The position numbers and the translations under genes were made by a program. 64,000 nucleotides of DNA from Naegleria gruberi (lineage: Eukaryota), in NCBI GenBank assembly GCA_000004985.1, contig GG738896.1; one strand, 5' to 3'. Of this stretch, positions 13,563 to 29,385 are shown piece by piece. Numbering within the stretch: position 1 is the first letter of the stretch; each line of letters begins with the position of its first letter. The notes beneath the pieces are model-generated. The model was not told the origin of the DNA, did no database searches, and saw only the letters and a list, made by a program, of their open reading frames with translations.

Positions 13563-14830
13563 TTATAATTGTTCTTCTTGTTGTTTTTGTTCTTCAGTAG
13601 TGTATTCATAAACATAATCAGTAATAATTTCCTTAGCTTCATCAGATAAATATTTAGAAATTGCTTTCTGGTCAACTTTAGCGAGAGAATCCCACTCATT
13701 CGAATGTTCCTTCTTGAAATCTGCCAAAATATCCTGAACAAACAAAGCCAAACACTTATTTCTCAATTTAAATGAAGTGATAATATTACCAATTTTGGAA
13801 ATGGCAGATTCCAATCGATTATCATTCAAATATTGAACTATTAAATCGAATACTGGAGTGGAAACAGATTCATTATCAAAGGTTGGCTTTTTGGTTTTTT
13901 TTCTAGGTCTTGGTGGCTTTTTTGGTTGCACAACTTCCTTAAATGCTTCATTCTTCTTCTTGATAATAAATCGTTCTCCCTTTTCCTTTGTGAACATATC
14001 TCTGATTGGCTTAATAACCACTCCTTCACAGATATTTGGACATGATTCAACGAGTGGGAGGTTGTAGAATAATTGTGGAATTTTGGTTGGATAATTGCAA
14101 TCGTATTCTAAACATTCTTCCAAAGTTCCTCTCATCACTTCTTTGGCATATCGAGAAATTCCACATTCAGTGAGTAATTGAATCATCTTGTCATAGGCCA
14201 AATAGAATCCTTCTTCCTTCTTTGTTTCTACATTTAATCCAAATACATAGACATCGAACATATAGAAATCATAATCAGGAGTATAATACACATGTTTTTG
14301 AATTGGATATCTTCCTTTTACATTTTCTATTTGATCATGAGGATATTGACCTCCAAAACTATTTCAAGAATTCCAAAATAAATAAATTTTACACTTAAGG
14401 ACACTTACATTTCTCCATAGAAATTAGCTCTTCTCACCTTAAAATTATCATTCGAATAGATATCACAAATACTCTTAAAAACCTTCTTTATCTGTTCCTC
14501 ATATCTATTCCTCACAATCTCCACAGCCTCAGGAAAGAAATCGTCATCTTCATGAGGTGATTTTTTCTTCTTTTGTTTTTCCTCTTCATCCAATCCAACA
14601 TATTGTCTTCGGGATGCAACCTGGCATTGAATATCTTCCACAAGACACGAATTGGCAGTCTGATAATTATCCCTCCACATTACAAAACTAAAATTACATC
14701 CATGAATCTTTTCAGAGACAACCCAAGGAATTGATGGATCATAATTCTCATCACGGATTAAATTCTTGGCAAATTCTTGATAGTGATTCTCGATGGAACT
14801 GTACGCTTTGAAATGATGTTGATTCTTCAT
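13563..14830 (-). CDS. Rnl2-family ATP-dependent RNA ligase in two exons, about 14830..14409 and 14310..13563, with an intron of about 98 nt
   Basis: The protein carries nucleotidyltransferase motif I EKIHGCNFSF (T4 Rnl2 has KIHGTN), motif III-like FDVYVFG, motif IV CEGVVIKP and motif V RFIIKKKNEAF. Exon 1 ends with at|gtaagt. The acceptor ag precedes a TATCCA... that restores the frame of ORF 14291 (GTG). Confidence 0.7.
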
Positions 14831-16148: not shown

Positions 16149-17312
16149 TCAACAATTATTCATACGGTAAGCAAATGCATACTGAAGAGGAAATTGTAAA
16201 TCTTGAATTGAATCTTCCTTTGAACTAATCTCAAAATAAACTAATTTTGCATTTGAGAATTTCATTGCATCATTATATGTGGGCACAAGTTCAGCAATAT
16301 ATTCAGAAATTACTTGTTGAGAGACTTGTCTTTTCAAATCCCTCTTCATTCCCAAAATAATAAACAGTATGCTATCTTTTCTGGTATCTTCTTTCATTTC
16401 TCTGAAAATGTAAAATTGCTGGTCCAAATCGACAACTTGTTTTTTCATATCCTCAAATGAGGCGGAATCACTCAAATCAAAGCAGAAGAAAACAACACGG
16501 GCTCCTCTATAGTAAGATAATGAGTTATGTGAAAATTGTGGATCACCACTTGTGTCCCAAATTAGAAATTTCATCATACATTGACTATCGTTAAAGTATT
16601 TCGGATAGAATTCCACGCCAATTGTTGGACGATATATACTGCTAAATTCTGATTGGTGTAACCTTTTCAAATATTCACTCTTTCCACATTTCATAGGTCC
16701 TAACAATGTCACATTATGGAGATAGTCAATTTTCTTCTCTGGACGAGATTGACTCTTTCGAATTTCACTCATAAATCTTTCATACAATAAAACATAATCC
16801 CGTGGATGCACCATCTGCATCTGACTCTTCTCGTATGCAACTGGTTTGAAATGTATCCAAGTTTCATTGGCAAGCTTATTCAATTCTTGTCGCCAAAAAA
16901 TATCCAATCCCGACCAAACGTTGAAACTCTTTGAAACTCTTTCCATCATTATAACATCAAAGATTGTAAGATAATCCATAATGTGCATTTTCATCTCATC
17001 AGGTAATTTGATAATTAAAATTCCTAATTTTGTTGTTATTATTGAATTGTTAGTTTCATCATGTATACTATCAATTTGTTGTTGTTCATTGAAATTTTCA
17101 TCATGATCACAATTAATTAATTGATTATTATTCCGATCATCTTGAGAAATTAAATTATTCTCTTCTTGCTGTTCCGATGTGTTGGGAAGACTTTGAACCA
17201 ATGCTGAATATCTCGCTGATGAAACCAATTTCCAATGCGAAAATTGTTGATATCTTGAAAAATCGATTACCTTTCTAGTACTACTTGCTGGCGGCACTTG
17301 TTTTTGTCCCAT
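16149..17312 (-). CDS. F-box domain fused to a Rab-like small GTPase domain
   Basis: An F-box is present (LPDEMKMHIMDYLTIFDVIMMERVSKSFNVW). The GTPase motifs are G1 LLGPMKCGKSEY, switch I YRPTIGVEF, G3 WDTSGDP (Q replaced by D), YYRGARVVFFCFDLSD, G4 LGMKRD (NKxD replaced by MKRD) and G5 EISSK. Confidence 0.65.
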   Translation of the reverse strand: MGQKQVPPASSTRKVIDFSRYQQFSHWKLVSSARYSALVQSLPNTSEQQEENNLISQDDRNNNQLINCDHDENFNEQQQIDSIHDETNNSIITTKLGILIIKLPDEMKMHIMDYLTIFDVIMMERVSKSFNVWSGLDIFWRQELNKLANETWIHFKPVAYEKSQMQMVHPRDYVLLYERFMSEIRKSQSRPEKKIDYLHNVTLLGPMKCGKSEYLKRLHQSEFSSIYRPTIGVEFYPKYFNDSQCMMKFLIWDTSGDPQFSHNSLSYYRGARVVFFCFDLSDSASFEDMKKQVVDLDQQFYIFREMKEDTRKDSILFIILGMKRDLKRQVSQQVISEYIAELVPTYNDAMKFSNAKLVYFEISSKEDSIQDLQFPLQYAFAYRMNNC

Positions 17313-17532
17313 TTTTTGTAATGCTTTCCTTTACTAGCATCACACATGGTAGAACAAACAAACTCGGCTTGTTACCTGCCTGGATGATCCTTCCACCCGT
17401 TAGTTACCTTAATATTTTTCAAATTGTCTTCTTGCAAGGCTTGTAAATTTTTTTGGCGAACAAGACTCTGCGGTAATTAAGCTTGAACTATTAAATGATT
17501 GGAAAGATATAAAAAATAATAAAACAATCATC

Positions 17533-18327
17533 ATGATGATGAAGATGGAATGTCCACTCATGTTTCTTCAAGAGGAGGTGGGAGAATTCAGTACCACTGT
17601 ATATTTCAGAGTAGCAGCATCTCAATCCGAACACCAACTCCCAACTAACTATTTTGAACCTATAAGGAGTGAGGTAATTATTGATAGTTACTTTGAAATT
17701 CCACCCTTTTGCTTACTAGAGGTGGATGGTGATTGGCCAATGGCAAGACTAATCTTTTCAGATTTGAATACATGTAAAGAGGACTTTATTTTGAAGAGTA
17801 AGAAACGAGAAGGCAACCAAATCACTGACGATTCACTAGTTCACTTTAATGTTAAACATTATGGCAGTAGCACAGATCTTGTGAATGCAATTTTGGAGAA
17901 TAAGAAAGATAAGTTAGCATTTGTGAAATCTAGTGTTTGCCAACGATTCATTGCCACCACTCACATTCTGAGATATGTACTGCAACACAAAACAGACCCA
18001 CAAGTTGAATTGCAACTGTGCAGTCTAAAGATTGGACTCGAGTATTATAATTTCGGTAAGATTAAGGTGGGAAGAAAGTGTGATGCAAATGAAATGGAAA
18101 CCTTTTTCAGTCAATTGAATCCAATGGAATTGCAATACATTATTCCAGCAAATAGTCCTGTTATTAGAAAAATGCAAAGTGAAAAATCCCTCCTTCTCCA
18201 GACCATACCATCCTCTCAAATCTACCACTTTATAGACACATCATTATCTGAAAGTCCTCTTCACTTTAAACATGAAAAATTTAATGACATTCTATTAGAA
18301 ACTCTAGAAGAAGTTTCTGAATACTGA
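17533..18327 (+). CDS. hypothetical protein, 264 aa
   Basis: An intact ORF begins at an ATG in an A/T-rich context. I recognise no family. Confidence 0.4.
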   Translation: MMMKMECPLMFLQEEVGEFSTTVYFRVAASQSEHQLPTNYFEPIRSEVIIDSYFEIPPFCLLEVDGDWPMARLIFSDLNTCKEDFILKSKKREGNQITDDSLVHFNVKHYGSSTDLVNAILENKKDKLAFVKSSVCQRFIATTHILRYVLQHKTDPQVELQLCSLKIGLEYYNFGKIKVGRKCDANEMETFFSQLNPMELQYIIPANSPVIRKMQSEKSLLLQTIPSSQIYHFIDTSLSESPLHFKHEKFNDILLETLEEVSEY

Positions 18328-18408: not shown

Positions 18409-19314
18409 TTAAGCATTGAAACCAGCAGCTCTAACAACTTGTGCAGAGGTGTATGATGAAACACTGAATCCAGAATCATTAACTTCGAAAACACCATTAG
18501 AGTAACTCTTAGCCAAAACCCAATGTCCACCATTTCTGACGTTCAAAATGACAACCTTTCCTTGACAGACCCAATTGATAATAGCTTGCTTATCAGTAGT
18601 TTGTCCAAGATAATTGAATCCAAGTCTAGAAACAGCTCCCCAAACAAACAAATTTCCATAATAACCTCCATTCTTCAACAAGTATTGGTTCAATTGACCT
18701 GGGTTCATTGAACTCTTTCCTCTACCATTCAAAGCAGAACAAACTGAATTCATCAAACAACCAACTTGACAAATAGTGGAAGAACTTCCAAGTCTATCAC
18801 CACCCCATCTAGAATCACATTGTTTAAAGAGTGGATAATTGTAATTTTGTCTACAACCAGATGTAGAACCACCACCACCACCTCCATTTTGAACAACAGT
18901 TAAGAAATTAGAGGCAGCATAACCAGTTCCAAAACTACCAGAAACCTTATACCAAGTATAACCACATCCACTTTGGACTTCACCAGTGAATTTGACAACT
19001 TGACCATTTCCAAGAGTAGTAATAATTGATTTACCAGTGCATGGTCCACTTCTGACATTCAAAGCAGTGGTTGCTTTCAAGGAAGCTCCACTAGCAATTG
19101 ATGAATCAGATTCGGCATCTGACATTTCGAAATCTTCTTCAGATTCGGATTGAACACTTTGAATGGCATTAATTGGAAGATCAATAGCGAAATTGGTGGC
19201 CAATGAAGGTTCTCCAACCAATTTGACACTTCTATTGTTTGGATAAGCACGTTGACAAGAGACAACGACAGCAAATGTCAAGAGCAATAAAATTCCCACG
19301 AAGATTTTGTTCAT
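18409..19314 (-). CDS. secreted bacterial-type cell-wall hydrolase candidate: signal peptide, SH3b-like domain, poly-Gly linker, then papain-fold (peptidase C39-like) domain
   Basis: The likely start is MNKIFVGILLLLTFAVVVSC at 19314. The SH3b-like segment is GPCTGKSIITTLGNGQVVKFTGEVQSGCGYTWYKV. The linker GGGGGGS is encoded by a ggtggtggtggtggt run at about 18870-18890. A Cys/His peptidase pattern follows (CDSRWGG...CQVGCLMNSVCSALNG...GGHWVLAKS). Confidence 0.65.
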   Translation of the reverse strand: MNKIFVGILLLLTFAVVVSCQRAYPNNRSVKLVGEPSLATNFAIDLPINAIQSVQSESEEDFEMSDAESDSSIASGASLKATTALNVRSGPCTGKSIITTLGNGQVVKFTGEVQSGCGYTWYKVSGSFGTGYAASNFLTVVQNGGGGGGSTSGCRQNYNYPLFKQCDSRWGGDRLGSSSTICQVGCLMNSVCSALNGRGKSSMNPGQLNQYLLKNGGYYGNLFVWGAVSRLGFNYLGQTTDKQAIINWVCQGKVVILNVRNGGHWVLAKSYSNGVFEVNDSGFSVSSYTSAQVVRAAGFNA

Positions 19315-19729
19315 TTTTTTTGTGATGATTTTTTGGCAGTTGAAAGGTTGAATATTAAAATCAAATTGCTGCTCAGCCAATACGGATAATAAACATGAAC
19401 GAGATGGTAATGAAAGAATAAAAATAGAATGTTAAATAATTGGGGCATTATGATATTGAGGGGGCATTGAAACGAATCGAATAGAAAATGTGCATTTATT
19501 CCAAACAAAATACTAAGTGATGCTTGAAAGGTAATCTTGCGCTGGAGTAACCGACAACATGATCTTGAAATGCATGCTTGTTGTTTGAAGAAGGTGGTTA
19601 TTGTAATAGTTTGTGATTGTTCAAATGGATGTTAGATAGAGAAATTTCAATCTTTTTGCATCTACAGTTCTATCAAATAACTTCTTTCCAATATTCGAAT
19701 AAGATTTTTACAAAATATACAATAGGATT

Positions 19730-21037: not shown

Positions 21038-24000
21038 TTATTCAACCTTAGATGATTGCTCTGATTGTTCTAGAGAGAGGGATCTGAAAATAGGGAAGAA
21101 GGAAGTAACATCATCATTGTCTTCACATCGATCGTAAATGTATTGTTCTGTACCTGTGAATTCAGTCACTGATTTTTGGTAGAGGTAAATTAAAAAGTAG
21201 ACATAATTCCACAAGTAGTGTTCCTCCTTGACATGCTTTTCAAAGGTGATACCTTCATTGGCTCTTGTATCGAATTTAGTTCGTTCCAATCCACAAATAA
21301 AACACTTATCTCGAATGTCCTTCTTTCTGTCTTCTCTTTCATTTCTCAGTACTTCAAACGAATCGAGAATGACACCAAACACAACGTTAACAAGTAACAC
21401 AATAACTATCACTAAAAAGGAAAGGTCAAGTATGGCTCTCTGAACTGAAACATTTGGATCATAAATATCCTCCCAAAAAGATTCTCCTCTAAAGCCATAA
21501 TCCAACATGGTCACATAGCAAGCTAACATATCTTCACATGTCTTGTCGCCTGTCTTGGAGATTTTAAAATCTGAAGAAAAGAAGGTAAAATAGAGTGTAC
21601 CAAAGAAGAATAAGGCAATACACAACAACATTCCTGTAAAGAACAAACGTTTCACATTCGAAGTAACTGATTTCAACACATCGGTCAATGACTTGAAGAT
21701 GTAAACCATTTCAAAAAGCTGTATCGAGTAAATAATTGGAGTTATCAACAATCCAATCACAGAGACTACAATGTAAATAATAAAATACCAAATTTGAGAA
21801 TCTTGTATGGTATATAAAAAGCATTTGGTCATAAAATCAAAATCTCTTGGAATTGAGTCCCACGTTTCGTTTTTCTTTAGCTTGAATCGTTTCTTCACTT
21901 CCAACGTCAAGAAGAGTGATACATAAATGACAAATAGAATTACCAGGAAAATCAATTGTGTCACACCAACAATAATAAGAATTATATCACTTGCAAGATT
22001 TCTAGGTGCTGTAGTTTTGGTGAGAGCATATACATCAAAGTCACTGCCAGGTAAAGGTATTTGAGAATACTCTGTTGTTGCATAAATTCTCTTAAATGTT
22101 CCCAAAACAATAATATTAATAATAACAGAGAGGAAGAATGAAGACAATCTCAAGTAATCCCACCAATTGGCAATATATTCCCATGATGCTGTTTTAACCT
22201 CTTGTTTCTTCTTTTTCTTTCGTTTTGCTAGCAAATTGCTGGTTGTGGCAACGAGAGACATTGAAGGCAAAAGATTTTCCATTTCCTCCTCTGGTTCCTC
22301 TTCTTCTTTCTTGTTGAGATTCGGAATAGTAAAAGTCTTTTTCATATTTTCATAGTGACACATTTCCACATAGAATGTACTGAATGTGTCATTGTACAAT
22401 TTCCTAACTTTTTCTTGTGGAGTCATTACGTGCAACGAATTGGCATAGTTGCTTCTTGCCTTATCGATAATATTGTTACATATTGTTGGTTTGGGAAAGT
22501 AGATCTTTTCAAGTACGTTATTTCTCAATACTTCAATGCTACCAGTTCTTTGTTTGAAATAAGAGAGCTCCTTTGAATTGGTTTGGAAAAAGTTGGCTAC
22601 TCTTGATTCCTCTTCCAAAGCTTGAGTACCCTTTCTGAATTCAGTCTCACTGTCCCTGATCATGGAGAGAAGGAAAAAGATGTGAGTTCCCAAGTCATCG
22701 TATTGCAATCTAATCTTCTCGAGATTGTCCTCCATATAGTCGTCGACACGGATTGGCTTCTTTGAACTCTTCTCAGATTGATACAAAACATGGAATCCAA
22801 AGTCTTTACGCATTCTCTTTTTGAGTCTTTCAAGATCATCACAATCATCATGGTTATTACCCGATAGAGTTTCGAACAATCTCAAAATGTACAATAATTT
22901 TTGTTCAAAATCATCCAAATTCAAAGAATTTTTCATGAATTCTAATGTGACTGTGTTTCTTCCTTCCAATAGAGATATTAAGAAGAGTGTAATTTCCTTC
23001 TTGAGGTCAAGCTCTTGTTCCTTCAACAACTTGCTGTCATCGTAGGTCTTACTCATGATTTCATTGATAAGTCTTGGATAAATCTTATTGGATGTACCAA
23101 TTAAATTTTGGTTAAAGACAGCAGGTCCTTGGACAAATTCGGTCAGGGTCTTAAAACCTTGGATGGCTACTTGAACATTGTCTGCATCCAATTTCTTTTC
23201 CAAAGCAATCAAATATTCAATAATTTCCGTAATTAAATCAAAGCTGAAAATATTTCTTGGTTGATGTTTCAATAGGGCTTGATTTTTGGTATTATGGCCT
23301 TCACACAATAATCTCAAAAATTCCATAGTGTTAAAAATGAATCCCTTTTCTACAAATTCCACACCAACTTCATCTTCTTCGTTATCATGGTCAGCATTGA
23401 GGTTAGTTGTAGACTTTTTCTGGTTAGCTAGTGCCAACTCCTTGTCTCTCTTTTTCTTCAAGTGATTCTTCATTTGTTTGATTTCAATCTTTGAGAGACG
23501 GATTCTGTCTCTAAGAGACATGAAAAATTCGGTAGAGTCTTGATCTGTAAGAAGCGAATAAATATGATTCTGAACGTCAAGATCTCCGTCATTCAATATT
23601 AAAATACCAAGCTCCAAAGCTGATTTTGCAATTTGATGGTGGTTAGAGTTGAGGAATTCAATAACTACCTCAGGAATTTTCTTTTCCACCAAATCTAATT
23701 TAAGAGTTGATTCTTCGGTTTGTTGGTTTTGCCTTTCAACAATACTCTTCAAAATATCCATACCAAAGAGTCCTACCTTCATGTTCTGAAGAAGTAAACC
23801 AGAACTATTCAAGTCACGTAATACATTGACGAGTGTTTTGATAAATCCATCATATTTGATAAATATGGCAGCAAGCTCTGAAAAGTTGGAAAAGTTTCTA
23901 TTAATCTTGGAAATTATTCTGTCTTTCAAGTACTTTTTGTATGTGTTGTGGATAAGTTCGTCCTTCTCGGTACTGGTTGATGTTTGTATTCTTGATCTAT

Positions 24001-27000
24001 GTACCTTGGCTTTAGTGGCCTTATTTGAAATGAAATTAGAAATTGCTTTCTGACTAGTTGAAGACATACTTCTCTTCAACATGGCCTGAATACATTTGAG
24101 AACTTTATCCCTATTCTCTGGATTTGGTGTATGTTTGTGAAGTTCTATGAGTTTTATCAACAAATCTTCTGCAATATCCAACTGTTCTTTTGTCAGATTT
24201 GGAGGTGGGAAGTGGAGATGGAAATAATCTCTCACACAAGGAATCATAATATCAAACAAATAGGTATTATCAACTTGATAGGTTTCTTGATCTTCCTCAC
24301 TAGGTCCAACGACTTTTGGAAGTGCTACAGAGTATGTTTTCGAAGATCGTTTGGAAGCAGTTGTTGACAATCCACGGTTTTTGGTTGGAGTAGCAAACAG
24401 TGAAGTGTTTGAGAGGGTTTTGCTTGGTGTTGTTGGGGTTCGAGTATGGGCATGCATAATACTTTGTCTTTCACCTTTTTGTGTGGATAAAATCAAGTCG
24501 TTACCATCTGATTCATTTGAATAGGTCATTTCTAACACTTCCAATTCAGTAACCATTTTAGAGAATAACTTGAAAAGCATTGGATGATGAACATTTACCA
24601 TCTTGCTCTCAGATTCTGTAGAGTCATCTGATGCCTTTTCAACATTCAAGTAAATTTCATCAATAACTTTAACCAATGGATTTCTCAATACAGGTAGAGT
24701 ACAACAAATAACTTGTTCTAAAAGTTCTTCATAGCTGTAGAGGGTTTGTAATTTAAGCTCACTCTCTCTGTTTTTACCATCAGCAAGAGAGGCCAACAAG
24801 TATAAAAGGGCAATGTGATAATTTAAAATACCATCTGGTTCAGTTTTGTGTTCACCTTTGATAATTCTTTGATTACGTTCTCTGAGACCTTCTTCGTCTT
24901 TGAAAAGAATCATAATGTCCTTCTTTCTTTCGAGCAGATATTTGGTAATGAGTGATTGGTTTCGTTTGATTGGATTGCCATTATTTGTTCCCAGAATGAC
25001 ATGCAAGAACAACAACATGAAAGAGCAAGGTTGCTCAGCAATTTGGTCAATGTAGTGTTCGATTAATTTTTCTTCAATAGTACTGCACAGACCTCTATTG
25101 TCTCTTACCATTTCACAAAGGAGAATGACAATCTTCTTATCTAGACTTCTATTCTCACCAATAGTGTGAATAAAGAATTCCAATTGTTTGAACATAATCT
25201 TTTGATTGTCTTGATTTCCTCTAACAAAAGCAATTAAAATATCAATACCAATCTCTTCAATTTCCTTGCTCACAATATAATCCTTCTTGAGGAATGTGAG
25301 AATAATATCATAAATGAAGAGATTTCTCACTATTCTTTGTGATCTTTGACCATTCTTCTTGATATCTGATAGGATTTCATTGAGAGCTTTTAGGACTTTT
25401 TTCTCTTCCTGTTCTGTGAGTCTTCTAGTACCAAAATAATTGCTTTGACCATAACCAAAAACAGATCGCAACTCAACTACCTGTGAAAGTAGCAAATCGT
25501 AGGATTTAGCCATTTCTCTCGAAACGATAAGTTCAATCTTTGGAAGAACTTCACATAATTCTTGAGCAGATCTGTACTTTCTAATTAGTAAATCAAGGCA
25601 GGTTGTAGCGAGTTCCTTATTTTCATATTTGGTCAGCGAAAGAATTTTAACATCGAATCGATCCATCTTGTTGAAAATAACATCCTTTTCGAGAATATCT
25701 TTGATTACAGCATATTCATTAGAGTCAATTTCGGCAAGTCTTTTCTGTTGTAAAGCTCTATTGTCCATTGGTATCACCTCTTGTTCTCTAAGTACAGTCT
25801 CAATCTCTTCCTCTCTGTATTTCTTCCAAAAGAATTGCAAGAATTTTGTCACTCTCTTGTCTAAAATAATGTCTAGAATCATGTGGAAGATGGAAGCAAT
25901 TTCAATTTTGATCTTCATGAGGGTTAAATTTTCTTCTACGTTTTTGTGTCTTTCTTCCTCACTAAGAATTCTACCATCCTTCTTGTCATTATCTCCTCTG
26001 AGCATATCAAAGAGAGAATTCAACAAATCACCCTCCTCAAAGTCTATCAATGTAAGAACTCCAAATTCCAACATTCTCTTACACATAATTACAACGTATA
26101 ATGTAAAGTTGTTGTGATCCTTCTTTTCTAAAGACACATCCAAGCTAACATTCTCTCTAAGGAATTTCCCTAAAAAATCTTTGATTTCTGCCAAATCCTT
26201 TGAGTTGCCGTCTTCTTTTGATCTTTGATTGAGAGTACTGGTTTTTCTGGTGTAGTCAATCAGTGGTTTCTTTTCTCTCTTCTCCGTATCAATGAAAGTT
26301 TGGATCAAAAGCTTTACAAATGATGTTCTGACGGCTGGTGTTAAATTCTTATCAGAGACACATTTGTGGACAACTTCGTAGGTGAACAGAGAAACAACAG
26401 ATCTTCTCGCATCCTCAATTTCTTCATTTCTTCCTGTACAGAGGGCAGCAAAAAGACGAATTTCCTCTTGGAAGAAGATGAGTTGTTCATAATTTGGTCT
26501 TGTGTATCCATTGTATGTATCATCTGTTGCAGACTGAGAGAAACTAATCAAGTCTATTTCATCATGATTGACTTCTACCACAACCTTGTCTTCATTGTTA
26601 AGCTTTGGAATGATAAAAACTCTTCTCAATTGGTCCTTATATTTTGAAAAAAGCAAATTACCAATATATACCTGATTTTTCACCACAGTTTTACCTTCAC
26701 AAATGATCAAGCTAGTCAAAAAGGATAAATAGACAGCCTTCTTCAAGCTCTTGGAACTTTGTCGCATACCAATCTTTGATGTGTTTTCAAAGAGAAGCTT
26801 GACGAAAAAGTCAATTTGTGACTCGGTAATCTTGTTCAAAAGTGGATAATTGTTGGATAAGATTTCCAACAGAGCTTCACTTGCAGCAATGCTATGTTCA
26901 ATCAGAGTTTGGATAAAGTTGATATATTGTGCCATGTAGAGACCGTTAGATTCGTTTGAAAGGACAAACTGTCTAATGAGTCTGAAGGAGTACTGAACCA

Positions 27001-29385
27001 CATCAAAATAAAGTGCCTTCTCTGGCTTTTCATAAATTAAAGATAAATCCTCAATTGATAAATATTTCTTCAATAATAGAGTGATATTTTCCATTACAAG
27101 ACCAATGACTCCCATATCTCTGATGATATTTTGTCTAAGTTTAACAGGAATACCACCTCTTGTTAGAGGGTCTGTCTCTTCACTAATAGTACAAAATCTA
27201 ATGCAATTTGCCAATGCACCAATGTAGAGTTTGATATCTGACTTGTCAATGAGCGAGTCGTCCAACTTGGATTTGAAATACCTAATAATTGGCATGTAAC
27301 CAGCTACGGTGAGTGCATCATTCAAATCCTCATGTGAAACAGCTGAAAAATTGAAAACATCCTGTTCAAACATTTTCAAAGATGAAGTTACTCTCTGATA
27401 GGTTGAGTCAGCAAGTGGTCTAGATATGTGTACCCAAGAATTAGTGGCTTCATGCCTCAATCTAAAGTAATCGGTGGTTTGAACTTTCTCACCCTTCTTT
27501 TGTCCTCCAGTCGAGTCGGTGAAATGGAAGACACTGGTTGGTATTGGTTGTGTAATCAAGTCATCAAAGTTTTCAACATGAAGAGTCCACAATGAATCAT
27601 TTTGTGTTACGCTGCCTGATCTATTTCCTCGTGGAGTGGCTACAATTGAACTTTTTCTAGGTGCATTAACTCCAAGTTGGCTCAAGTTATCACCAGATGT
27701 TGGTGTGTTTTCTCGTTCATATCTTTCTTCAATGGCATCATCCGCTTCAATGGTTATTCCTTTAATAGGACGAATCACCATGTATTTTCCACTTGCCAAG
27801 TGTCTTAGACGGAATTTCGAAGTCCACTTTACAGTACCAGAACAGCTAGAGTCTAAAAATTCCAATTGCCACAAAGTTTGAGGACTCACATAGTCAGAAG
27901 ATTTAGATTCCATACCAGCCAAGCTTGTATCCTCAGAGTCGTTGATTTGTAGATTGCTTGATTTCTTGAAAAATTTAATTCTATCCGTTTTTTCATTCAC
28001 TCCAATATATCCTTCCAATTCCTTGTGGTATATTCTCATAATGGTGGATCCTGCTTTGAGTTTTCTATTTGTTTCATCATTTTGTGGTGTGTATTTTTGG
28101 TAGAGTTTCATTCTCCACCTAGTGAATGCAGTACTATTCGCCATGTTAACTTCTCTTCTACTATCGTAGGAATATTTTCCTCTATTTCGTGATAATTTTA
28201 CAGCTTGTTGAGCTAATTCTGTGTATGAAGAATTTTCATTCACTCTTTGATAGGTACCATCATTGTCTTCTCCAGTTGTGTATCTATAATAGGATAAGTG
28301 AATAAATTGGTTGGACTTTTTGTTGTAAAGTCTAATTTGATCAGTGAGTTTAACTTGATCTCCATCCTTTTGAAAACTGGAATATGGCATTATTTGAAAG
28401 TATGAATAGGTAGATCCTTCTTTATCGAGGGCCAATCTCATACAATCCTTTTGCATTTCTGCAGATTCTCTTGCTACTGTCAGATAGCACTGTGTTTGTA
28501 CATGATACAATTGTACTGTTTGTCCATAGACAACTGGTTTTGAAAGGTTTCTTTGTGATTCCATCCTATTTTGTTCAAGTTCTCTTTCAGCTCGTTGTTC
28601 CAATTGTTGATATTCTGTTGAGAAGGAGGCTGTCGAAGGCATTACATTATTCTTGTTATCCTTTGTTTTTTTGTTGGCCTCTTTCAACTCTTGTTCTTCT
28701 TTGAAGGTTTTGAACTTTTTCAGTGCTGAATAACTCTTTGGATGACAAATCTTGAAAACACAATTAGAAAAGTTTGGTGTAAAGAAGGAAGAATCCTTTT
28801 CTGAAATGACAGATTCCACCAGACCACATCTAGCTTGTGGTTTGTTTCTAAAATATTGATGAAATAATAAAAGTAGTATTTAACAGAGAATAAAGAAGGT
28901 GAATAATTAGTTGAATATTTAAACAATATTTACCCTTTAACATTCTCGGAACAAGTCAAATTAATACCATCCACACTCAAGAACCCAATCATTGAATTAC
29001 CAGTACTTTTTGATGACAAATCCGTATAGAAGGAAATTTCCTCTCCAATTCTCAAATAATCTCCCTTCTTTTTCATCATCATATTATTCATCCACAATTG
29101 TTGCTCATCCTCCTTCACATCACTCATCACATCTTCATCCTCATCATACAAATGATGATCAAAGCCTTGTTGTTGCTGTGCAGAAGAGGATGATGATGAC
29201 GAATATTCGGAATGTTGTTCATGATGATGATTTGATGTGGCGCCATTATTTTTAACGGCAGAAGTGGCGCTTACCGATACGATGAGTTGTTCTTGTTGTT
29301 GATGAAATAAGAGTGCATAGTCAAAGAGGTGTTGTGATGATGGTTCGGAAGAGTTGCTATTGTTATGATTATTGGATAGTGTCAT
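21038..29385 (-). CDS. inositol 1,4,5-trisphosphate receptor-like Ca2+ release channel in two exons, about 29385 or 29082..28934 and 28847..21038, with an 86-nt intron
   Basis: Exon 1 (...DYLRIGEEISFYTD..GFLSVDG) plus exon 2 (CGLVESV...CVFKICHPKSYSALKKF) reproduce the IP3R N-terminus (LHIGD..., CLFKLC). Exon 1 ends with gg|gtaaat. The acceptor ttttag at 28848-28849 joins in phase to the 2593-aa ORF, whose track start is GTG. The C-terminus has IP3R hallmarks FLVIVIVLLVNVVFGVILDSF and CFICGLERTKFD plus the conserved tail. The upstream in-frame 100 aa are Gln/Ser-rich. Alternative ATGs lie at 29082-29076. Confidence 0.85.

Follow-up and report, generated by a model that had tools for sequence, protein, structure and literature searches.

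Gene identity and domain architecture

Does a single gene of Naegleria gruberi join an F-box to a Rab-like GTPase, and could the resulting protein still be at work in the cell? The question is raised by one gene in a 64,000-nucleotide stretch of contig GG738896.1 (assembly GCA_000004985.1); the whole of this stretch is called the window here. We found that the gene encodes the protein XP_002672693.1, in which an F-box lies N-terminal to a Rab-like G domain, and both the identity of the protein and its domain architecture are near certain. The reading that we prefer goes further, and we regard it as about evenly poised between right and wrong: XP_002672693.1 would belong to the Naegleria F-box–Rab-like family as a working member specific to this lineage, with a predicted role as receptor of the Skp1–Cul1–F-box (SCF) ubiquitin ligase.

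The gene runs on the minus strand from an ATG at position 17312 to a stop codon ending at 16149, as one unbroken open reading frame (ORF) of 387 codons. The product is 100% identical, at 100% coverage, to the protein recorded as 'rab family GTPase [Naegleria gruberi]' (NCBI XP_002672693.1 and EFC39949.1, UniProt D2VTK9). The public gene model is therefore a single intron-less ORF, and the window is N. gruberi nuclear DNA.

A preliminary description of this DNA, made from its letters, had placed an N-terminal F-box and a Rab-type G domain in one polypeptide. This was borne out by the continuous ORF, by Pfam matches to both Ras and F-box and by the recurrence of the architecture in other proteins. 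The same description had raised the possibility that an F-box gene and an adjacent small GTPase gene were read as one, and beyond its having been raised we found no support for it. We reject such an artefact, which can be taken as practically out of the question: no stop lies between the domains, and the frame is continuous. Furthermore, the order of Met-Gly start, F-box, linker and G domain recurs on other N. gruberi scaffolds, in N. lovaniensis and on environmental contigs, and expert re-annotation (Table S8, PMC8296547) left the gene model as it is.

The published record of this gene is found in Herman et al. 2021 (BMC Biol 19:142, PMC8296547). In Table S8 of Additional file 10, XP_002672693.1 has a row labelled 'Rab' with F-box as additional domain, no corrected model, no pseudogene flag and a blank entry for orthologues outside Heterolobosea. 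The supplementary text (Additional file 4) describes three clades of Rab-like proteins that are specific to Naegleria and extended by an F-box, and proposes GTPase-dependent ubiquitination as their role. The gene, the domain pair, the family and the ubiquitination hypothesis are thus already known from that supplement. The novelty implied by the preliminary description was overstated, since the protein is listed there as Rab plus F-box and the SCF link had been proposed. What is added here is the family-wide pattern of the G3 and G4 motifs, the conservation of the nucleotide pocket, the absence of a prenylation site, the Met-Gly start and a parallel fusion in Luapelamoeba. The available part of the supplementary text, figures apart, makes no mention of the loss of the switch-II Gln, of Leu, Met or Thr in G4, or of the Met-Gly start. 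These additions sharpen the biochemical hypotheses and leave the overall picture unchanged, and the work as a whole is a re-discovery of a published annotation.

A family of F-box–Rab-like proteins in Naegleria

To collect relatives, 1.84 billion representatives were searched exhaustively with HMMER, which gave 15,876 Ras-domain matches. A small subset of these aligns as one stretch with XP_002672693.1, from about residue 95 to residue 380. The full-length relatives that carry a name are N. gruberi paralogues and N. lovaniensis proteins only, and the rest come from environmental contigs. The family alignment used below has 16 members, all of which match both the Ras and the F-box models of Pfam. 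At least 14 paralogues or orthologues, among them N. gruberi paralogues on other scaffolds, have this architecture, in which F-box and G domain are joined by a shared linker.

XP_002672693.1 is a member of the Naegleria F-box–Rab-like family of Herman et al. and shows nothing different in kind from it. It aligns end to end with the listed Naegleria paralogues, which have the same N-terminal extension, F-box, G domain and signature (XP_002672750.1, XP_002674035.1, XP_002674104.1, XP_002672819.1, XP_002677172.1, XP_002673544.1 and XP_002670446.1).

The last of these (P0002, on another scaffold) is the closest paralogue. Its NCBI model has 321 amino acids and is about 50 residues short between the F-box and the G domain, so that its BLAST match is confined to the G domain. 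The re-annotated sequence in Table S8 of Herman et al. brings the residues back (…FQFYWIRNRTLWKG…IPLIRNSFKR…), and it seems that a false intron was removed in the public model.

Two further searches, and a check of other matches from the first one, bear on the reach of the family. A profile search with the family alignment in a word-indexed set of 5.8 billion proteins returned ordinary Rabs and three family members. It is of no use as a taxon survey of F-box and Ras fusions, because most members of the alignment were not recovered. A scan of one genome per species in bacteria and archaea, in which 27 patterns were matched and which detects close relatives only, gave no relatives that would speak for a bacterial origin or a tie to Legionella effectors. 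Matches of 360–750 amino acids with two to four aligned stretches were considered as further F-box fusions and rejected, all nine of those scanned with Pfam (9/9) having two Ras-family domains in tandem, as real tandem GTPases or through fused gene models. Many of the top scorers of the representative search, including P0045, P0046, P0049, P0053 and P0064, are matches of this multi-stretch kind.

N-terminal region and F-box

The Pfam check of the domains, which the preliminary description had proposed, returned an F-box (PF00646) at residues 101–141 with an E-value of 2.9e-4 and 21.0 bits on the full protein, the gathering cut-off being 20.5 bits. The score rises to 22.4 bits when the N-terminal 200 amino acids are scanned alone. 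The F-box-like model PF12937 gives 19.9 bits and stays under its cut-off of 24.3 bits. Across the family, both models are matched by 16/16 members (E<=0.01), and the best F-box E-value is 2.4e-8. A family profile of F-box and linker, searched against all PDB sequences, matches almost exclusively F-box proteins, and its best 25 matches are F-box proteins only; the matches include KDM2A (2.6e-4), KDM2B, FBXW8, FBXW7, FBXL5, Cdc4, FBXO4, Skp2, beta-TrCP and Legionella AnkB. The alignment of the 16 members has the consensus LPxExxxxILxYLxxxxLxKLxRVSKNFxxYWxxxPxLW in this region.

An AlphaFold2 model of the full protein, built on the family alignment, is of moderate quality, with a mean predicted local distance difference test score (pLDDT) of 61.7 and a predicted template modelling score of 0.57. 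It places three short helices in the F-box (residues 105–114, 117–126 and 128–134), with a moderate pLDDT of 61–66. Because all members match the F-box models, the family profile finds F-box proteins in the PDB and the model shows three helices, the F-box of XP_002672693.1 is bona fide once the family results are added, and it is predicted to be of the Skp1-binding type. Furthermore, conservation within the family is highest in the F-box, where the mean pairwise identity is 39%, followed by the G domain (30%), the N-terminus (21%) and the linker (13%). This argues that the F-box is functional, as a degenerating appendage would not show such conservation.

The region in front of the F-box is of low complexity over residues 1–93. 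It begins with MG[QN] in 14/16 family members, of which nine satisfy the PROSITE N-myristoylation pattern PS00008. At the level of the family the Met-Gly start may hint, weakly, at a putative N-myristoylation site.

The Rab-like G domain

The C-terminal half of the protein matches Pfam Ras (PF00071) over residues 201–367 with an E-value of 8.6e-23. Its best sequence matches in the PDB are all Rabs (Rab32, Rab38, Rab1, Rab11, Rab9, Rab8, Sec4, Ypt1 and Ypt7). A Foldseek search with the model of the G domain likewise gave Rabs only among the top 15 (Rab9, Rab7, Rab8, Rab1 and Rab11), at a template modelling score of about 0.8 normalised to the target, and a few Rho and Ran chains rank below them. 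The Rab family motifs (RabF) are reportedly IGVDF, KLQIW, RFrsiT, YYRGA and LVYDIT, a consensus said to go back to Pereira-Leal and Seabra 2000. Measured against this consensus, XP_002672693.1 keeps IGVEF and YYRGA, and its KFLIW, QFSHNS and FCFDLS are degenerate.

Among the hallmarks of the Ras superfamily, G1, the Thr of G2 and the DxxG of G3 are present in XP_002672693.1, and the Gln after DxxG and the [NT]KxD of G4 are absent. The preliminary description had read the catalytic Gln of switch II as replaced by Asp (WDTSGD) and NKxD as MKRD, and both readings stand in the DNA. In the P-loop, Met207 and Lys208 put bulky residues at the positions equivalent to G12 and G13 of Ras. The motifs and the other features of the protein are collected in Table 1.

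Table 1 Features of the F-box–Rab-like gene and its product, with positions in the window
Feature	Residues	Position	Strand	Basis
Complete single-exon gene, F-box–Rab-like protein, 387 aa		16149..17312	-	ORF list; 100% NCBI protein match; Table S8 row
N-terminal region, start MGQKQV, Q/N/E/D-rich, predicted disordered	1-93	17034..17312	-	pLDDT <50 in AlphaFold2 model
F-box (LPDEMKMHIMDYLTIFDVIMMERVSKSFNVW...)	101-141	16890..17012	-	Pfam PF00646, family profile, model helices
Linker: C-terminal extension of the F-box (…FW…KP…) and helix 170-186; weakly conserved	142-197	16722..16889	-	Alignment, model pLDDT 45-70
Rab-like G domain	198-383	16164..16721	-	Pfam Ras, PDB and Foldseek Rab matches, model pLDDT mostly 70-92
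G1 / P-loop GPMKCGKS, canonical GxxxxGKS	205-212	16677..16700	-	Alignment; G205, G210, K211 invariant
Switch I / G2, RabF1-like YRPTIGVEF; Thr230 present	227-235	16608..16634	-	Alignment; T230 >=90% conserved
G3 WDTSGD: DxxG intact, Asp257 for catalytic Gln	252-257	16542..16559	-	Read off DNA
G4 LGMKRD: Met322 for NKxD Asn; Lys323, Asp325 present	320-325	16338..16355	-	Read off DNA
G5 FEISSK, in family signature VQYFE[LI]SSK	360-365	16218..16235	-	Alignment; Y359, F360, E361 invariant
C-terminus ...RMNNC: lone terminal Cys, no CC, CXC or CaaX prenylation motif		16152..16166	-	ORF translation

The deviations in G3 and G4 are family-wide and not peculiar to XP_002672693.1. Across the 16 members the residue after DxxG is hypervariable (D, D, H, H, D, S, S, E, N, S, S, I, D, S, G and K) and is Gln in none. 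G4 reads G[L/M/T]K[R/S/K/M][D/E], with a residue ahead of the invariant Lys that is never Asn and an acidic residue that is Asp in 14/16 members and Glu in 2/16. Two shorter fragments that are not in the alignment retain the Gln (P0116, WDTSGQ; P0126, WETAGQ). The invariant columns of the alignment are mostly those of the nucleotide pocket, namely G205, G210 and K211 of the P-loop, G256 of DxxG, and G321 and K323 of G4. The C-termini of the family members are mutually unrelated and mostly Cys-free, and no Cys is conserved; that of XP_002672693.1 reads ...AYRMNNC.

As the P-loop, the Gly of DxxG and the Lys of G4 stay invariant, binding of guanine nucleotide has probably been kept and catalysis in cis has probably been lost; without nucleotide binding, conservation of just these residues would not be expected. 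The preliminary description had suggested a domain that is GTPase-deficient, constitutively GTP-bound or nucleotide-independent. The hypervariable position of the Gln fits a loss of cis catalysis, and the invariant residues of the pocket argue against nucleotide independence. Its structural interpretation was right, and its biochemical interpretation is a plausible hypothesis.

Proposed function and alternatives

In the mechanism that we favour, the F-box would dock on Skp1 and hence on a Cul1-based SCF ubiquitin ligase; the core components of SCF are assumed to be present in Naegleria. The G domain would take the position of the WD40, LRR or Kelch domains of ordinary F-box proteins and could act as a module for binding partners or substrates. 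It would probably still bind guanine nucleotide and hydrolyse it slowly, giving a long-lived or specially regulated switch and not the normal Rab cycle. Slow intrinsic hydrolysis is expected because the cis Gln is lost and the P-loop has the bulky Met207 and Lys208. Membrane targeting, if there is any, would go through N-terminal acylation rather than C-terminal geranylgeranylation.

The nucleotide state of such a protein may take several forms. RabGAPs of the TBC type supply a catalytic Gln in trans, through which even a Rab that lacks its own can be turned off. Nucleotide affinity falls when the G4 Asn is replaced by a hydrophobic residue (Ras N116I and the Asn-to-Ile mutants of Rabs), and Rho GTPases normally have Thr at this position. 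On sequence alone, the G domain may be locked with GTP, cycle fast or bind nucleotide weakly, because Gln can come in trans from GTPase-activating proteins and because of the effect of the G4 Asn. We therefore do not adopt 'constitutively GTP-bound' as a finding, and would keep it as an inferred state only.

A different use of the same architecture would be a role of the F-box in cis, as a turnover handle that ties the Rab-like GTPase itself to SCF and the proteasome and makes it short-lived, without recruiting other substrates. F-box proteins are commonly auto-ubiquitinated within SCF, and the combination of Ras and F-box fits this explanation equally well. In support of it, such a role has been suggested for the F-box of TbFRP, a FYVE–F-box–Ras-like GTPase confined to Euglenozoa, where the F-box was connected with fast proteolysis and a dynamic turnover of TbFRP itself (Adung'a and Field 2013, PMC3593210). 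A handle in cis leaves unexplained that the whole family has lost the catalytic Gln, the G4 Asn and prenylation while the pocket was kept, and we consider it unlikely, even if nothing in the data separates action in cis from action in trans.

The F-box may also serve in a Skp1 complex outside SCF, as a regulator of trafficking and not as a ligase subunit. Yeast Rcy1, which is known to form a cullin-free complex with Skp1 and to function in recycling together with Ypt31/32, is of this kind. The G domain of XP_002672693.1 is nearest to trafficking Rabs, the F-box of the family resembles those that bind Skp1, and the conserved Met-Gly start may point to an association with membranes, all of which would suit an Rcy1-like function. 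Against it, the prenyl anchor of Rabs is missing, and the available text of Herman et al. (PMC8296547) favours the ubiquitination reading. A slim chance is what we would allow it.

Several points weigh against a functional SCF receptor as such. No transcript evidence was found for XP_002672693.1, and the record rests on a single genomic contig. For this protein taken alone the F-box score is barely over the threshold, a marginal call, and its MGQKQVP start misses PS00008 at two positions. By analogy of the G4 Met with the Asn-to-Ile mutants, the G domain could be largely nucleotide-free. The available text of Herman et al. (PMC8296547) states that a specific functional prediction is not possible and that genetic tools do not exist. 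It also reports disrupted members or pseudogenes and rapid birth-and-death evolution in the F-box–Rab-like clades. In our searches the nearest relative of XP_002672693.1 was only about 38% identical, and with a birth-and-death family this is compatible with selection on this copy that may be relaxed.

The last two of these points also speak for the explanation that XP_002672693.1 is a decaying or neutrally drifting paralogue, a recent product of birth and death in which the odd G3 and G4 motifs are signs of degeneration. Furthermore, its F-box scores lowest of the full-length members with the family hidden Markov model (HMM), at 68.9 bits against 70–91. Against drift of this kind stand a 1,164-nt ORF that is intact in a region of 33–34% GC and the missing pseudogene flag in Table S8. 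The deviations of G3 and G4 are shared by the family, and the P-loop, the DxxG Gly, the G4 Lys and the YFE/SSK signature are intact in XP_002672693.1. We regard decay as quite improbable.

If the SCF-receptor mechanism is true, a switch of membrane identity of the Rab type would be coupled directly to cullin-RING ubiquitination, a wiring found in no model organism. It would give a distinctive regulatory layer to Naegleria, the genus to which the brain-eating N. fowleri belongs.

Genomic neighbourhood

A tblastn search of the window with three family members as queries showed no further copy and no tandem cluster. The genes around the F-box–Rab-like gene are typical eukaryotic ones, among them genes for an RNA ligase of the T4 Rnl2 type, an NmrA-like protein and a channel of the inositol trisphosphate (IP3) receptor/ryanodine receptor (RyR) type.

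The RNA ligase gene has two exons, at 13563–14291 (-) and 14405–14830 (-). Pfam RNA_ligase (PF09414) is matched in both and T4_Rnl2_C (PF18043) in the second, and the upstream exon holds a KxDG-like nucleotidyl-transferase motif, 'EKIHG'. The exons are about 113 bp apart, and the gap is presumably a short intron. The channel ORF (21038–28819, minus strand) encodes 2,593 amino acids, looks essentially intron-free and matches Ins145_P3_rec, MIR, two copies of RIH, RIH_assoc and Ion_trans in Pfam.

Upstream of the F-box–Rab-like gene, a divergent intergenic stretch of 220 bp (17313–17532) separates it from a plus-strand ORF (17533–18327) for a protein of 264 amino acids that has no Pfam match. 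The stretch presumably holds a common bidirectional promoter. The gene at 18409–19380 (-) encodes a protein of 323 amino acids in which a hydrophobic segment lies N-terminally and Pfam finds an SH3_3 domain of bacterial type (PF08239, E 1.3e-10). The protein also has a run of Gly, and its C-terminal half is rich in Cys and matches nothing in Pfam. This may be a protein of bacterial character, secreted by an amoeba, that binds or hydrolyses cell walls.

Comparison with known systems

Canonical Rabs (Rab1, Rab8, Rab9, Rab11 and Rab32) are the best matches of the G domain in sequence and in structure, and they share IGVEF (RabF1) and YYRGA (RabF4) with it. In contrast to them, XP_002672693.1 has an N-terminal extension of 197 residues that bears the F-box, insertions ahead of G4 and between G4 and G5, and neither the catalytic Gln nor the G4 Asn nor a prenylation site.

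The same losses are seen in a transcriptome protein of Luapelamoeba hula (Amoebozoa; EukProt EP01087_P014122; P0196), where an F-box-like domain (E 3.8e-7) lies N-terminal to a Ras-family domain (E 8.1e-50). Its motifs are WDTAGP, with the Gln lost, and GTKND, with the Asn replaced, and it has no C-terminal Cys motif. Its G domain is far closer to canonical Rab1/8. As the HMM of the Naegleria family F-box fails on the F-box of this protein, it is most likely an independent F-box–Rab fusion. In this fusion (P0196/P0104), SSH stands where SAK is expected.

A second Naegleria clade in Table S8 reads WDQCGP with TTKKD and WDYSGP with GTKSD, Gln and Asn being lost there too. The losses of the Gln, the G4 Asn and the prenyl anchor thus seem to accompany fusion to an F-box, with all three in the Naegleria clade of XP_002672693.1 and in Luapelamoeba, and Gln and Asn in the second Naegleria clade. 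Three cases only lie behind this convergent pattern of a 'locked Rab on an F-box', which is suggestive and not proof. A bolder speculation, doubtful as it stands, is that F-box–Rab-like proteins are nucleotide-gated or permanently 'on' substrate receptors that would take SCF to specific membranes, and that the triple loss is a recurrent design and not decay.

TbFRP resembles the Naegleria protein in that a single polypeptide carries an F-box and, C-terminal to it, a Rab-related G domain, and both belong to the same supergroup, Discoba. It differs by an N-terminal FYVE domain that binds phosphatidylinositol 3-phosphate; the Pfam scan of XP_002672693.1 gave no match to a FYVE zinc finger at E<=1. 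An N. gruberi orthologue of TbFRP was sought by its authors and not found (PMC3593210). Common ancestry with the Euglenozoan FRP is a possibility, in which case the F-box–GTPase module would be of ancient origin within Discoba.

Among the Rab-like effectors of Legionella there is a subset with F-box or U-box domains (Gomez-Valero et al., bioRxiv 10.1101/350777). Like the Naegleria protein, such effectors have a Rab-type domain and an F-box in one protein, and their hosts are amoebae including Naegleria. Unlike it, they are secreted by bacteria.

Finally, RhoBTB joins a G domain of the Ras superfamily to an adaptor of a cullin-RING ligase, as the Naegleria protein does, and is cited in the available text of Herman et al. 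(PMC8296547) as a widespread precedent that is present in Naegleria. The two differ in the adaptor, which is BTB for Cul3 in RhoBTB and the F-box for Skp1–Cul1 in the Naegleria protein, in the order of the domains, which is opposite, and in the G domain, which is of the Rho type in the one and of the Rab type in the other.

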